From Eledone cirrhosa (taxonomy: Eukaryota), in assembly GCA_964016885.1 (NCBI GenBank), contig OZ024742.1, forward strand, positions 81,778,001 to 81,842,000: a stretch of 64,000 bases of DNA. The letters are read 5' to 3'. Of the stretch, positions 4-60,130 are shown piece by piece. The first letter of the stretch is position 1; the number at the start of each line of letters is the position of its first letter. The translations under genes were made by a program, and so were the position numbers. Below the pieces are notes generated by a model, which was not told the DNA's origin, searched no databases, and saw only the letters and a list, made by a program, of their open reading frames with translations.

Positions 4-120
4 AGGTAACAATTGTTTCTATAGTGTATGGGTTACCTATACCTCGCTATTTGAATAATATAAAAATATTATCTTAAACCGAAGGTACACTGTAAGCAAA
101 CACACCATGACGTCAGACCT
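4..120 (-). ncRNA. Degenerate type-I hammerhead ribozyme, long stem II (end of PLE-type insert 1-465)
   Basis: Minus strand: aggt CTGACGT catggtgtgt...atacactata GAAA caattg TT acct. Stem I aggt/acct, stem II pairs, palindromic stem III; core A9 is mutated. Confidence 0.55.
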
Positions 121-466
121 TTGTATTGGAATGATATGAAAATATTTTATACACTAGATAAAAGAGAAAGAAGGAGGTAGGAAGAGAAGGGGAAGAGGGA
201 AGTGAGTAAGGTGGAGGGAGTCCTAGGATTTAAGACTGTCAGACTAGTAGAGATTGTAAGGAGAGAATGTTTTGGCAGCAGTTAGCTTAATGAGGCGTGT
301 TAGGGTTGGCGGGGGAAGTAAATTCTTCTAGTGGTGTTGTTCGGACAAAATTTAGTTAAAGGGGTCAAAGTGGTACAGAGCTACAGACAAGTTATTGGGG
401 CTATTATAGTAGCAGGTTATTTCTAAAGGGGTCCAGAAAACAGTGTTTAGTACTATTATTATTTAA

Positions 467-663
467 ATATATATATATATTTATTTGGTTCCTTTACCGG
501 TTTCGCAGTTCTTCTGCTTTTCAAAACTAGAGTTGAGATGGAGGGTCAGAGGTTTTTCTCAAATCTGATGTGAGAAAAATGACAGACACTCCATCTCAAA
601 TCTACTTTTGAAAAGCAGAAGAACTTTGAAACCGGTAAAGGAACCAAATAAATATATATATAT
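467..663. repeat. Fold-back insert (~75 bp arms) with a U3-A8 hammerhead in each arm (492-527 minus, 605-640 plus)
   Basis: 467-543 is the reverse complement of 588-663. Motif ctt TTGAAAA gcag aagaa ctgc GAAA ccgg TA aag (right arm has cttt in stem II). A related tail recurs at ~45315-45390. Confidence 0.75.
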
Positions 664-697
664 TCTTTTTAATTTAGACTCCAGTTGCATTTTCGAT

Positions 698-916
698 GTT
701 ACTTAAATATAAGTATGCATACGTACATACATATATGTATACAGACATACAGTAATATGTATATATATACATACATGCACATATATATCGTTCCTTTGTC
801 AGTGTTGAACAAAAGGGCAACGATGCTTGCTCAACACTGTACAGCTTTATTCGGGATGTTTGTTATACATATTACTGTATGTCTGTATACATATATGTAT
901 GTACGTATACATACTT
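698..916. mobile_element. Rearranged (partly inverted) copy of the 420-bp HHR repeat family
   Basis: 698-790 is the reverse complement of 14540-14638-type sequence; 789-916 matches 14419-14630-type sequence with deletions. Confidence 0.6.
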
Positions 917-1099
917 ATATATATATATATATATATATATATATATATATATATATATATATATATATATATATATATATGTATGTACATATATTTGTGT
1001 ATTTATGTATGTATGTATATATATATATATATATATATATATATATACCACCAGATTTACCCGGCGTTGCCCAGAGTTTGAAATTATGTTAAGAATATA

Positions 1100-3400
1100 C
1101 AGATAGGAAGTAAAAGAGGAACAATATTATTTGTCCTCAACCTGTCATAATAAGCAGAAGTCTTCAATAATTAATGCAAACGAATATTTAGTGCAATCTT
1201 TGTACATAATATTATGCTGATAATGAAGGAAAATTTTGTTTTAACTGATTTTATCATTGTAATAATAGTCTTTTTTTAATAAATTCACAATATCCTGGAA
1301 GCATAGATAACGCCTGCCTCAAATGTGGACGAAATTACTTTAAAAATGTAAAAGTAGTAGGTCCAAACCGTTTGAATGGAAAGTCCTATAAGGATTGTTT
1401 TTAGATTGATTTCTCACTTACAGCATACACTTTAGAAAAAACAATCTTCTTGTATTGCCTCGACGGCATAAGCAATTTCTGCCTCACATTTGGTAAAAAA
1501 CACTCGAAAAATGTAAAAGTAATTGGAACTTTTAATTTGCATGGAAAATCCCATAAGGATGTTGTCGTCACTGTTATCTCCTTTACATCATGCACTTCAG
1601 AAAAAATAATTTTGCTATCAATTTTTTATTGCTCAACGTGGGTCGATTTGAAAAATGTTTGTGATGTGACGATCTTAGCGACAGCAGGTGCAAGGTGCAG
1701 AGAAAGTTTGGTCAAATTCGGTTGCGAATTGTAAAAGCCTTAGCTGTCCAAAATGTTCCACTCACAAACACACACACACACACACACACACACACACACA
1801 CACACACACACACACACACACACACACACACATACACACATACACATATACACACACACACACACACACACACACACACACACACACACACACACATCCT
1901 CGTTTTTATATATATATAGATATATATATATGTTTCTCTGCTAGTTCTTTATATTTATATATTTATATACGTATTTATTTATTTTTGTTTTTGTTAATTT
2001 GCAAATCTGCTCATCTCACTGCTTATCTAGATGACTTTATCCATGCGTGTGTGGTGTGTTTTGTATGTGTATTTATGTACGTATGTGGATATATGGTTTC
2101 ATGTCCATACGTGTTTGTTGCAAGTTTGTATCCATATGTGTGTGTGTGTGTGCATGCATGTGTAAGCGTATGTAAGCGTATATGAATGTATGTTTATACG
2201 TGCGTGTATATACATATATTATATGTATGTTTATATGTATATATATATGTGTATGTGCATTTGTATATGTTTGTATGTATATGTGTATATATATATATAT
2301 ATACAAACATATACACACACACATATATATATATATATATATATATATTTATGTATATGTATATACGTATATTTTCGCCTACTTTTGTGTATGTGTATGC
2401 ATGTGTACGTGTATGTGCGCATGTGTGATCGTTAGAACTCAGGTATATATGTGTGTTTGTATTTGCGTGTAGACACACATATACTTATGAGGTTACGTAT
2501 GTGCGTGATTTTGTGTTTATATATGCGTTTGAATTTCCCGGTTAAATTTTTGTACGTTATTTTATTTCAGCCTCGCTTTCTTTTATCCTAGACTCTATTT
2601 TGAAATCCATACCTCACTTCAATTTCAATAAAATTCATTTCTTTCTGACTAATGAAGGCAGATGTATGTGCCAAGCTCGTCTGTCTTCGTGAAACCTTTG
2701 GTAGACGAAATAATTATCTGATGTTGTTTATTACATAGCTAAAAAGCTCTGTAGCCTACATCGAGCACTCTGTTTTCCTTTACCTTTCCTATGGAAATAC
2801 TTCAATTATATATATATAAATAGGAAAGTAAATAATTATAGGTGAAGAAGGTATATATCTCAAAAATAAGGGATATTTTACTTACTCAAGGCTACATACA
2901 ATTTCATAGAAAAGTATGAAATCCTACTATAAACGATTTTGAATCCACGTAGAACAATGAATACATTGAGAAATATGCCAAACATTCCCAACTATATCCT
3001 ATTTTAATTCACGAGCGGTTCATCCTTAATAGTAAGAACTCAATGTTAGGAATTGTCAGAATTACATAACATATTTACCTTAAATATGACAGTATGTACA
3101 AAACATATAACATACCGGTGTGTTCTTTTTACATATAAAAACAGTCGTTGCATCATACAGTATGTTGAGCTTTTAATCAGGAGATTTGGAAGAGAGCTGG
3201 CAAAAACTTGATACTTATTCGATTAGGAAACTTAATAAAACTTTGGAACAAATAATGTTGGTGATATTTTAACAGAATCTATATAATGTCGGACGTAATA
3301 TTATATTGATATATCTTCAAAACATAATATCAGAATCATGGAAGTGGTGGTGGGGGCGTTGTTGATTTTAAATAAAAATTATTATGTATTGTAATGCATA
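1100..3400 (+). pseudogene. Decayed TLR-like remnant A (LRR-CT-like 1230-1600; TIR-like 2900-3350), split by insert 1770-2820
   Basis: 3001: ILIHERFILNSKNSMLGIVRI (cf. TIR box 2 LCxHxRDFxxG..I); 3181: EIWKRAGKNLILIRLG; ~1360: GPNRLNGKSYKD (cf. LRR-CT CxxPxxLxGKxLxD). Many stops and frameshifts. Confidence 0.35.
2637..2711 (+). ncRNA. Type-I hammerhead, core G8 mutated, at 3' end of non-coding insert ~1900-2810
   Basis: atttcttt CTGACTA atgaaggcagatg..cgtctgtcttcgt GAAA cc-ttt-gg TA gacgaaat; 13-bp stem II including GU pairs. Confidence 0.6.
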
Positions 3401-58149: not shown

Positions 58150-58229
58150 ATTCGTTTTAACTGAACTGTATCCATTTAAATCCTTCTATATATATATATA
58201 TATATATATATATATATATATATATATAT

Positions 58230-58434
58230 AGGACGACTAGGACACCGACGGCTGAGCTCAAGCCGCATCGACGGCTAATTCTGGACTAAATCATTTAGTC
58301 CAGAATTAGCCGTCGAAACGGCTGGAGCTCAGCCGTCGGGGTCCTACTCGTTCCTATTACCCACTCTACTACCCTAAGTATTGAGTACTTTGGTGCGTTA
58401 TGGTCCACCTGGTTCCTTACCACATTTCCTTCGT
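58230..58434. mobile_element. Fold-back stub of the Naiad pLTR family (another at 60351-60543)
   Basis: 58230-58290 is the reverse complement of 58295-58355; tail matches 25673-25810 reversed. Confidence 0.8.
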
Positions 58435-58559
58435 TATATATATATATATATATATATATATATATATATATATATATATATATATATATATATATATATA
58501 TACATATATATACATATATATATAGATAGATAAATCTCCCAAAATATACAGTAGTATCC

Positions 58560-58933
58560 AATCCGTATGAAGAACTTAATGTAATCCAAATATCATGAAA
58601 AGAGAAGATGCATTCAAATTTTTTCGATGAAAATCACAGGAAAACAGAGTCAAGATAAATTAATAAAAACAATGAATACAAACAAAGAAGAAGTTCCTTA
58701 TATTAAAAAATTCATTATTTTACGATCGTTTCTAGGATATATATATGTGTTGGTATGTATATCATATAGATCTATGTAAGAATATTACAAACTATCAGAG
58801 GAAATATACATACCTTCACATATATAATTCTTCTGAAGACAGCATATATATGTGAAGTTATGTATATTTCCTCTGATAGTTTGTAATATTTTTACATAGA
58901 TCTATATGATATACATACCAACACACATATATA
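58560..58933. repeat. Fold-back insert (arms 58739-58826 / 58845-58932) with hammerhead halves on opposite strands
   Basis: Plus: CTGAAGA (58834) then arm; minus: arm then GAAA cgatcg TA aaat (~58717-58732). Confidence 0.65.
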
Positions 58934-58934
58934 C

Positions 58935-60130
58935 TCCGGGTCCCTCGCTCTACTTGATTTCAGACTGAACATCTATGATAGCGGTGAAATCCACACCGAT
59001 TTCTACCGCAAAGTAACCAGCGGAGTCCCGTTTGTTCATTACAAATCTTATCTCCCCAACAGCTCTAAAAGAGAGTACACCTTCAACTAAATGGCTCGCA
59101 TACGTAACCGATGGAGCGACGCTGATACTAGAGCCACCCATATTAGACGATTCCACAAGGTACTAGAGATTAAATACTACCCAGCTTCCTTCTCCATCCC
59201 ACGACGAAACCCTAGACCCATAGACCTGACCAACACAGAAAACAGTTGCTTCGTCAAGATCCAACATGTCAGTGAGGAAACCACGCAAAGCCATCAGAAG
59301 AGAGGGCCCCAATATCAAAGTGGCTCACTATGCACCTTCCCTGCGAAAATTCCTCTCCACATGCCCCCCCCCTCCCTACGAGTTCAACGGATGCACCCTA
59401 GCCAACTGCCCCATCTGCAAGTTTAATTGTTGGCTATGTACCTACGTAGTATACAGGCTAGAATGTAACAAGTGCAATCTATTTTACATAGACAGCACTA
59501 TTCGACTGTTACATATCCGTATTAAAGAGCATGTTAACATCAACTCCTGTTTCTTCCACAAACACATCATCAAATGTGGAAACCGGGACAACATTATCAC
59601 CACAATCATAGCTACCGAACTCAGTATAGGCACGCTGACAATTAAGGAAGCCCTCTTAATCAACCAATTAAAAGTTAGGGTCAATAATGGAAAGGAAAGA
59701 GTACACTAATTTAAAAGCCTGTATTCCATCATCCCAGCAGCTAGTTTCATTCCTTCTTTCAAATTAAATTAAATCTATGTCTTCATACACACATACATAT
59801 ATCGCACACATATTTTTCCCGTTTTATTATATACATATTCGAATACGTCTTTCACTACATAAACTGATATTCATGCTCACACATAAACACATCCCACTAA
59901 GCACGCTTACAAACTTGCTCACACATACATATATCACATATTTCACAATACGCACCCTTGAAATTTAACGTCTTTTCATTTGATTTAACTTAAATCTGCT
60001 CTCCAAACAAGCAATTCTATCCGATCGATTGTTTAAGTCTCTCATAGATTTACTCCCTTGATAATTGGTTTTTAAACCCGAAAATATTTGGGATCATTAA
60101 ATTTTCAAATGTAATGTTCTTCCTACCACA
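58935..60130 (+). mobile_element. 5'-truncated PLE (GIY-YIG with Cx4Cx2C linker), U3-A8 HHR at 60054-60093
   Basis: TDFYRK (RT thumb, ~58994), GCTLANCPICK, VVYRLECNKCNLFYIDSTIR.LHIRIKEH, IKEALLI; tccc TTGATAA ttggttt-tt-aaaccc GAAA atat TT ggga. Confidence 0.8.

Follow-up and report, generated by a model that had tools for sequence, protein, structure and literature searches.

What carries the many predicted hammerhead ribozymes in a 64-kb stretch of the Eledone cirrhosa genome (contig OZ024742.1, positions 81,778,001–81,842,000; hereafter the window, meaning this whole stretch), and why do they lie so close together? The window is AT-rich, is cut into islands by (TA)n tracts and belongs to an assembly of 3.0 Gb. 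From our comparison of its sequence with copies elsewhere in the genome, the motifs are very probably hammerheads that lie in the terminal repeats at the 3′ ends of Penelope-like elements (PLEs), mostly of the Hydra clade, joined by several non-coding tandem retrozymes likely served by the enzymes of these elements; they would be dense because copying likely begins a short way beyond the hammerhead and in most cases halts or folds back at an early point.

Type I hammerhead motifs in the window

The type I descriptor comprised the core, GAAA, stem III, UH and stem I, with a folded stem II of at most 130 nt. Using it, we found 17 exact-core hammerheads in the window, compared with a mean of 0.53 (maximum 4) in 60 local dinucleotide shuffles, the control that the initial annotation had proposed with U3-A8 cores and a long stem II allowed, and with one in the reversed window sequence. 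The motifs contain the core YUGANRA...GAAA...UH with a 3-8 pair, enclosed by stems I, II and III with stem I open. Ten are C3-G8 and seven are U3-A8, the variant for which the initial annotation had allowed. When positions 3 and 8 were scored for each of the 16 possible pairs of bases, the window yielded 10 C-G and 7 U-A against 0–2 for any other pair, and a genome sample of 59 evenly spaced 10-kb stretches yielded 53 C-G and 19 U-A against 0–9 for each of the remaining 14. Two stricter descriptors, which miss a bulged stem II, gave 6 versus ~0.2 and 10 versus 0.18 (window versus shuffles).

Whole and decayed copies together amount to ~29 cores in the window, which self-BLAST divides into ~19 families without shared flank similarity, in line with the more than a dozen unrelated families first reported. 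Each of the 23 hammerhead coordinates in the initial annotation matches a type I hammerhead or a hammerhead-family member in decayed form. The exact core and all three stems are present at 14 of them (7983, 8309, 9583, 10365, 10717, 13960, 14380, 20419, 25766, 31338, 31712, 38596, 38913 and 60054), and the other nine are weak or decayed: stem I or II is weak at 492 and 605, stem I is broken at 12971 and 31791, stem III is broken at 41801, private substitutions occur at 4 (A9U) and 2637 (G8U), the motif at 45726 carries U4C and that at 57930 is split by an insertion. The A9U change was considered as a fixed variant of its family, F10, and ruled out, as it is private to 2 of 28 motifs and A9 is kept in the other 26. 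Six further motifs (13533−, 15969−, 17217−, 19259−, 23260+ and a U4A motif at 42867+) had been overlooked. Most short islands had been said to carry a motif; of 40 islands shorter than 1.5 kb between (TA)6+ tracts, slightly more than half do (23), 19 with a core and four with a 3′ half. The motifs had also been called minimal and placed at one per 2.5 kb; in many of them stem II is long, reaching ~115 nt, and in some stem III is stable, and the density of exact cores is one per 3.8 kb in the window, about twice the sampled average of one per ~9 kb.

The elements that carry the motifs are given below by window position and strand; F and U numbers and letters denote families, and L numbers denote other loci.

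1–128 (−): F10 hammerhead with private A9U and stem III caattg, 3′ end of a Hydra-clade PLE; in 14 loci a same-strand endonuclease ends ~400 nt upstream.
480–652 (both strands): F11 inverted pair (U3-A8, ccgg), cores 524− and 608+.
2633–2715 (+): F8b hammerhead with private G8U, from the descriptor and family copies.
7977–8058 (−): F8 hammerhead, intact, 3′ end of a Hydra-clade PLE; endonuclease 1.2–1.3 kb upstream in 6 loci.
8182–10487 (−): F1 retrozyme, 1.7 tandem copies of a non-coding 1274-bp unit and an inverted arm; hammerheads 8302–8388−, 9576–9663− and 10359–10445+.
10580–11991 (−): F7, 5′-truncated 3′ end of an autonomous Hydra PLE, as seen from a 4511-bp unit in L270; intact hammerhead 10709–10770.
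12962–13023 (−): F11b hammerhead (U3-A8, ccgg), stem I broken, from family comparison.
13455–13540 (−): U3-A8 hammerhead at core 13533, its stem III long, from the descriptor and family comparison; decayed second copy 18490–18575.
13936–14683 (+): U420 retrozyme, 420-bp tandem unit; hammerheads 13953–14007 and 14373–14427.
15744–16479 (−): family A′ 3′ end, U3-A8 core 15969, with a 3′ tail 79–83% like family A; second copy 16992–17724 (core 17217).
19393–19473, 19898–19943, 58235–58349 and 60438–60537: family A′ 3′ halves, from sequence similarity.
19198–19271 (−): F5-group hammerhead (tatgta); relatives lie 3′ of a Hydra ORF in L034.
20415–20483 (+): F5 hammerhead (tatata), 3′ end of a Hydra-clade PLE; endonuclease 1.1–1.3 kb upstream in L275 and L276.
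23260–23304 (+): hammerhead with weak stem II and 4-bp stem III; relatives in L043 and L065.
25674–31446 (both strands): family A, palindromic Hydra-clade PLE insertion with a broken reverse transcriptase-endonuclease ORF on both arms; U3-A8 hammerheads 25760–25866− and 31331–31437+; same layout in L039 and L066.
31667–31891 (both strands): F6 inverted pair (tatata) with an intact core at 31762− and one at 31796+ whose stem I is broken; the longest copies share 0.66 kb without ORF or tandem.
38435–39111 (−): U317 retrozyme, 2.1 copies of a 317-bp unit; U3-A8 hammerheads 38588–38648 and 38905–38965, with a 10-nt palindrome in stem III.
39087–40133 (+): 5′-truncated PLE ORF, Neptune-like (reverse transcriptase end, CX4CxxC linker, GIY-YIG with Cys/His), joined back-to-back to U317 in the window locus only.
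41769–41864 (−): F12 hammerhead (ctaattag type), stem III broken, probable retrozyme.
42031–42938 (+): 5′-truncated Hydra PLE (endonuclease remnant 42125–42223) ending in the F15 hammerhead, U4A core CAGAAGA at 42867.
45715–45840 (−): F14 hammerhead (caattg, U4C), decayed, from family comparison.
54339–58186 (+): F13, near full-length broken Hydra PLE with a hammerhead at both ends, 54338–54456 (core cut off) and 57930–58156 (split by insertion).
58709–58931 (both strands): cgatcg-type hammerhead, inverted halves split at the inversion junction; in L052 a member of this family is located 3′ of a Hydra ORF.
58950–60101 (+): 5′-truncated PLE (CX4CxxC linker, GIY-YIG; Neptune/Nematis-like) followed by the U3-A8 hammerhead F9 at 60050–60101; same link in 5 further loci.

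Families linked to open reading frames of Penelope-like elements

For each family, the 20–30 top genomic copies by similarity were taken with 1.5-kb flanks, some of them extended, and searched with PLE fragments. In the longer copies of nine of the ~19 families, a PLE open reading frame (ORF) lies directly upstream on the same strand. Eight of the nine are Hydra-type: family A (window, L039 and L066), the F5 group (L034, L275 and L276), F7 (L270), F8 (6 loci), F10 (14 loci), F13 (5 loci and the window), the cgatcg family (L052) and F15 (L409, L415, L416, L418, L424, L425 and L429). The ninth, F9, follows a CX4CxxC-type endonuclease in the window and in 5 of 19 other loci. The families had been described as mostly non-coding; copies of the ORF-linked families are non-coding because they are 5′-truncated, and tandem non-coding families number four, one of them probable.

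The F7 unit in L270 contains an 873-codon open frame between two identical hammerheads (L270:5433–8051), and the family is young, with all 40 listed matches 100% identical over 131 nt. The single ORF encodes a reverse transcriptase (RT) and then, at its C terminus, a GIY-YIG endonuclease, and its translation contains RWR, DKT, CxCX5C (CNCRRASGC), CxxC (CNLC) and CxH (CPH) and lacks CCHH, the set that section 11 of PMC8557442 gives as the Hydra signature. RWK and DKT are likewise present at 54.7–55.0 kb of the window, and two more Hydra-clade features, terminal-repeat hammerheads and (TA)n as the insertion target, were found as well. The intact ORF gave no match to Pfam-A or PDB sequences; its atlas neighbours (0.95–0.98) bear HTH_animal, GIY-YIG or RVT_1 on part of the members, and one named relative, at 35%, is from Argonauta, nearly all matches being unnamed. 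Among the 59 sampled stretches, Hydra-type ORF pieces occur in 12 and Neptune-like pieces in 4.

Mobilization had been attributed to Naiad and Neptune enzymes. In all four ORF-bearing window elements the RT precedes the C-terminal endonuclease, and the dominant ones have Hydra motifs; no ORF with an N-terminal endonuclease, as in Naiads, was found in the window, the PLE-fragment queries being unable to detect Naiads elsewhere. The elements at 39087 and 58950 show the CX4CxxC and Cys/His pattern in broken frames with a weak Pfam GIY-YIG match, which may correspond to the CX2-5CxxC linker and CCHH-type GIY-YIG that follow the RT in Neptune or Nematis elements.

Non-coding tandem retrozymes

Three families, U317, U420 and F1, are non-coding head-to-tail repeats with one type I hammerhead per unit and are true tandem non-LTR (long terminal repeat) retrozymes, so the mixed community first envisaged is borne out and not every family is a truncated pseudo-LTR (pLTR) of a PLE. 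Counted by eye, another unit lies upstream in 27 of 28 other U317 loci and in at least 20 of 29 U420 loci, and a same-sense ORF in none of either; U420 forms arrays of 14 and 18 units. The F1 junction was found in 6 of 29 other loci, with two whole units in L282, and the longest stop-free frame of its units is 70–141 aa. F12, with one ~535-bp tandem among five loci with relatives at 80%, is probably also a retrozyme. Within single U317 insertions, shared rare variants per unit pair amounted to 0.20 for tandem (25 pairs) and 0.28 for inverted (36 pairs) units, versus 0.04 between loci (2462 pairs), an excess of about fivefold. Contigs from four of four runs of unknown kind carry the 317-nt head-to-tail joint, which a DNA tandem and a circle would produce alike and from which we draw no inference.

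Further tandem hammerhead units of ~486, 533, 595 and 311 bp were seen at L287:6488–7460, L288:5945–6478, L051:2380–2975 and L117:11–932, respectively, and probably represent more retrozyme families. Arrays whose period is ~466–500 bp contain the U420 motif as well. Three candidate assignments were rejected. U317 is not the terminal repeat of the adjoining Neptune-like ORF (the junction occurs in the window locus and in 0 of 28 others), F1 is not linked to the endonuclease fragment of L024 (this fragment has the inverted orientation, with no F1 after it), and F11 is not a 3.07-kb tandem unit (other insertions lie between the motifs in the two stretches examined). The back-to-back joint of the U317 dimer with the Neptune-like fragment (38435–40133), together with similar mixed joints in L024 and L281, suggests a template switch between two RNAs.

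A high-copy family with A at core position 4

A scan for single-base core variants returned one recurrent family, F15, with the core CAGAAGA (window motif 42855–42920, plus strand). Its stems comprise 5 bp (I), 3 bp over a U-U pair (II) and 5 non-palindromic bp (III), and it caps Hydra subfamilies, with the endonuclease ending 90–880 nt upstream. Exact genomic counts are 25,722 for A4 and 911 for U4, or 16,133 and 60 with stem I included, and A4 is present in 78 of 80 collected copies. A canonical U4 sister subfamily was considered and rejected, since 17 of 17 sampled U4 matches are inversion junctions. As F15 departs from the invariant U4 of the type I core, we call it hammerhead-like and treat it as a candidate ribozyme. 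U4 changes strongly lower activity in minimal hammerheads. The natural core variants in the accessible text of PMC3088659 are U3-A8, A6C, insertions, U15.1-A16.1 and U4C, and the string 'U4A' does not occur there; a full-text literature search for cleavage by U4A hammerheads returned no paper on the subject by title or abstract.

Another core change was seen in three F14 relatives (L284:6381–6509, L275:3044–3155 and L129:2337–2456; 73–83%), all of which have U at position 9, a change that could reflect common decay or another variant that became fixed.

Insertion anatomy and a proposed mechanism

A (TA)6+ tract lies within 300 nt downstream of 56 of 64 sampled hammerheads, compared with 23% of random positions, which together with the ORF linkage agrees with the proposed mobilization into (TA)n by a Penelope-like RT. 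Each family has two preferred 3′ ends abutting (TA)n, in most families ~40–55 and 100–170 nt past the predicted cleavage site; 5′ ends are variable and an inverted second arm is frequent. Neighbouring pairs of the same family are head-to-head (diverging) in 11 cases and converging in none. Stem III is palindromic in 46 of 68 sampled hammerheads, as had been noted for the window. Inversion junctions coincide with short palindromes, the 17 sampled U4 motifs of F15 all lying in TCTTC-W-GAAGA (12 by script, 5 by eye), and F11 has a similar fold-back hot spot at 397 sites. We rejected F11 as a fixed palindromic element resembling a miniature inverted-repeat transposable element, because the same centre in 29 of 30 loci reflects query bias: 397 sites compare with 10,520 motifs, and arm spacings vary. 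The same layout of 5′-truncated, partly inverted PLE insertions appears in Fig. 2 of PMC8557442 and in the accessible part of PMC4209133. Four stretches between (TA)n tracts (17814–18281, 43278–44068, 44160–44450 and 60724–60945) contain repeat ends, inverted or duplicated, in which no hammerhead was recognized; these may be PLE ends with the motif cut off or members of hammerhead-free families.

These features could be produced as follows. The hammerhead would cleave the element RNA, acting as a dimer in families with a short palindromic stem III and as a monomer in those with a stem III of 4–6 bp, and the cleaved RNA would probably be circularized. The GIY-YIG endonuclease would nick a (TA)n tract, and the RT would prime at a fixed site and read back across the cleavage junction. 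An early stop would leave a short copy, folding back at a short palindrome would add an inverted arm, and repeated passage around a small circle would yield retrozyme arrays longer than one unit. Because insertions end past the cleavage site and the site is read through intact, the template would be a circle or an uncut multimer; a circular template has been proposed in PMC4209133 and PMC7229834, as far as their accessible sections go. With fixed 3′ ends past the cleavage site and an inverted second arm, most insertions would keep one or two hammerheads, and with priming less than ~200 nt from the motif even very short insertions would keep it, often twice, which would account for the density without a host function. 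Most genomic copies are likely dead passengers, with selection acting on a few source copies only.

Genome-wide load

In the genome sample we found 71 exact-core matches, compared with 4 in shuffles (three U3-A8 satellite artefacts in L056 being kept in both sample counts), or 1.14 per 10 kb, which extrapolates to ~340,000 exact cores in the genome (bootstrap 235,000–455,000). A whole-genome pattern for one stem III class matched 75,925 times, versus 83 in the reversed control; the share of this class in the sample, ~17 of 71 by eye, predicts 86,000, in agreement with the count. Exact whole-genome counts were 24,670 for U420, 10,520 for F11 and 25,722 for F15, the last lying outside the exact-core estimate, and the four exact patterns together give 136,837 motifs counted directly. 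All collected loci fall into 69 clusters, 30 of which occur in at least two loci, and the number of hammerheads per stretch follows the number of (TA)n tracts (rho 0.42). We estimate that the genome holds at least 300,000 predicted hammerhead motifs, most of them the tail ends of cut-short Penelope-type elements and part of them small non-coding repeats. Schistosoma satellites are perhaps of similar hammerhead density.

Mostly open-access literature on octopus and cephalopod ribozymes and on genome-wide retrozyme and Penelope hammerheads since 2021 yielded no survey of such a load, and a term search of the available text of a 2026 Octopus vulgaris repeat annotation (PMC13282606) found neither 'ribozyme' nor 'hammerhead'. 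The load exceeds the highest published count that we found, up to 120,000 copies in the 28-Gb genome of the axolotl, ~10 times larger than the present one (accessible parts of PMC7229834 and bioRxiv 2026.07.22.740005).

Alternative explanations

Some observations would fit chance matches in AT- or microsatellite-rich DNA, or satellites without ribozyme meaning: an Rfam scan (E ≤ 10) listed no hammerhead family among 150 of its 258 matches, one-mismatch cores arise 10.8 times per shuffled window, and a few U3-A8 matches are satellite artefacts, such as the three in L056. For the set as a whole this explanation is refuted by the excess over controls (17 versus 0.53, 71 versus 4 and 75,925 versus 83), by the covariation of positions 3 and 8 and by the conserved position of the motifs at element ends. 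It holds for single matches, such as two of the 17 exact cores, 35340+ and 41491−, which match no family and are probably accidental. That independent non-coding self-cleaving RNAs dominate, with autonomous elements a minority, is improbable. The three clearly tandem families are abundant, with U420 alone counted 24,670 times, more tandem units exist in L287 and L288, and six window families are without assigned class, two of them large (F6 and F11); against this, 9 of the 13 families with an assigned class are ORF-linked, as are the two largest counted groups (the F5 type and F15), and neither 29 other loci of F6 nor 19 of F8b contain a tandem, such families resembling truncated 3′ ends. Possible, though we would not favour it, is that the fold is kept as a recognition or priming signal for the PLE enzyme, with cleavage secondary or dispensable and U4A elements transposing with a catalytically weak or dead core. 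One of the largest families has U4A fixed across subfamilies that differ in the length of the 3′ untranslated region, unrelated families resemble each other in the distance between motif and 3′ ends, and inserted copies span the cleavage site uncut; moreover, PLE hammerheads are described as cleaving poorly in vitro and Naiads as doing without them in the accessible parts of PMC4209133 and PMC8557442. On the other side, the exact core persists in ~30 unrelated families and positions 3 and 8 covary, which points to selection on catalysis, and position 4 may be tolerant, as a U4C variant is active enough for viroid infectivity (PMC3088659, in part). Such a signal would in any case add to the identities of the elements and not replace them.

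Several points weigh against our preferred reading, in which PLE 3′ ends and retrozymes are copied from just past the hammerhead. Overall divergence is equal within and between U317 insertions (0.0205 versus 0.0202), the variants shared within them could stem from gene conversion or later duplication, and unequal crossover could account for the long U420 arrays. Six families (F6, F8b, F11/F11b, F14, 13533 and 23260) showed neither an ORF nor a tandem link in 1–30 copies each, so the division into classes is incomplete, and the ORF queries were PLE fragments from the window and L270, which would miss Naiads or distant clades elsewhere. The clade that mobilizes the retrozymes is inferred from target site and end structure, no sequence link to a Hydra pLTR having been found. 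Fifteen Hydra ORF ends with at least 1.5 kb downstream have no hammerhead that passes the filter, some of which are filter misses (such as L270, L424 and L425). Minimum-free-energy folds give the catalytic three-way shape for some monomers only, and one of nine predicted Xenopus retrozyme dimers cleaved in the part of bioRxiv 2026.07.22.740005 available.

Other features of the window

A dispersed family resembling short interspersed elements occupies 23536–23713, 48012–48134, 53220–53643 and 57982–58082, one piece interrupting the F13 hammerhead. Remnants of non-LTR retrotransposons (long interspersed elements) lie at 23649–24400 (+), with a zf-RVT match at 23649–24101, and at 34600–35800 (−). 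Frames like the end of another non-LTR retrotransposon ORF were seen at 51856–52329 and in L445, where the open stretch is 396 codons. An assembly gap of 200 N spans 34397–34596.

Relation to known systems and significance

The kinds of element are already known; new here are the load and a Hydra family in which U4A is fixed. Comparisons in this section refer to those parts of the cited sources that were accessible. The Hydra clade of PLEs with a C-terminal endonuclease was described in PMC8557442, whose supplement S1 includes Hydra-1_Obim from Octopus bimaculoides. The present elements share its order of RT and GIY-YIG, RWK/RWR, DKT, CxCX5C, CxxC and CxH motifs without CCHH, (TA)n targets, terminal-repeat hammerheads, tandem and inverted 5′-truncated copies and two ends of different length. 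They differ in the number of hammerhead families linked to Hydra ORFs, at least eight within a single window, in the U3-A8 and U4A cores, in the length of the F7 unit (4.5 kb versus 'generally <3 kb') and in 3′ extensions of 50–110 nt versus a 30–40 bp tail. Naiads (PMC8557442) share the (TA)n targets and are known as remnants in cephalopods, but have an N-terminal endonuclease and no canonical hammerhead.

Metazoan PLE hammerheads (PMC4209133) are likewise type I, belong to heterogeneous families, derive mostly as single motifs from truncated PLEs, and include opposite-strand pairs 100–700 bp apart, a palindromic stem III, an extra base after A9 and the U3-A8 covariant. Their counts are ~2,000 and 1,300 in Schistosoma, 4,000 in coelacanth and 9,000 in Xenopus, versus ~340,000 here; in addition, stem II reaches 115 nt here, and that study has no U4A among the legible cores of its Fig. 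S3 and no cephalopod in its list. Like metazoan non-LTR retrozymes (PMC7229834; bioRxiv 2026.07.22.740005), ours are non-coding head-to-tail units of low GC content with one type I hammerhead, range from dimers to long arrays and coexist with PLEs, which have been proposed to mobilize them. The F1 unit of 1274 bp lies beyond the 51–972 bp range of the latter source, and a further difference is that dispersed copies here directly bear the PLE integration signature of fixed 3′ ends in (TA)n and 5′ inversion.

PMC8557442 and PMC4209133 call the role of the hammerhead in PLEs unclear. F15 is a natural variant that bears on whether transposition needs cleavage, and its existence means that entire families of high copy number escape descriptor searches in which the core is held invariant. 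A bolder proposal, which we advance tentatively and consider rather doubtful, is that PLEs keep the hammerhead fold as a ruler for the RT start, with fast cleavage optional; the U4A family would then be a natural experiment, a crippled core at tens of thousands of copies with both stems and the fixed 3′ ends kept, in a genome with what may be the heaviest load on record (~340,000 exact cores and at least 25,000 U4A). Young autonomous elements with an intact frame (F7), truncated copies and retrozymes with the same integration marks occur together here, which makes this genome a single system for testing the models of circular templates and of cleavage as dimers. If a small share of the estimated 300,000 motifs cleaves inside introns, the load would also bear on transcript processing in the host.

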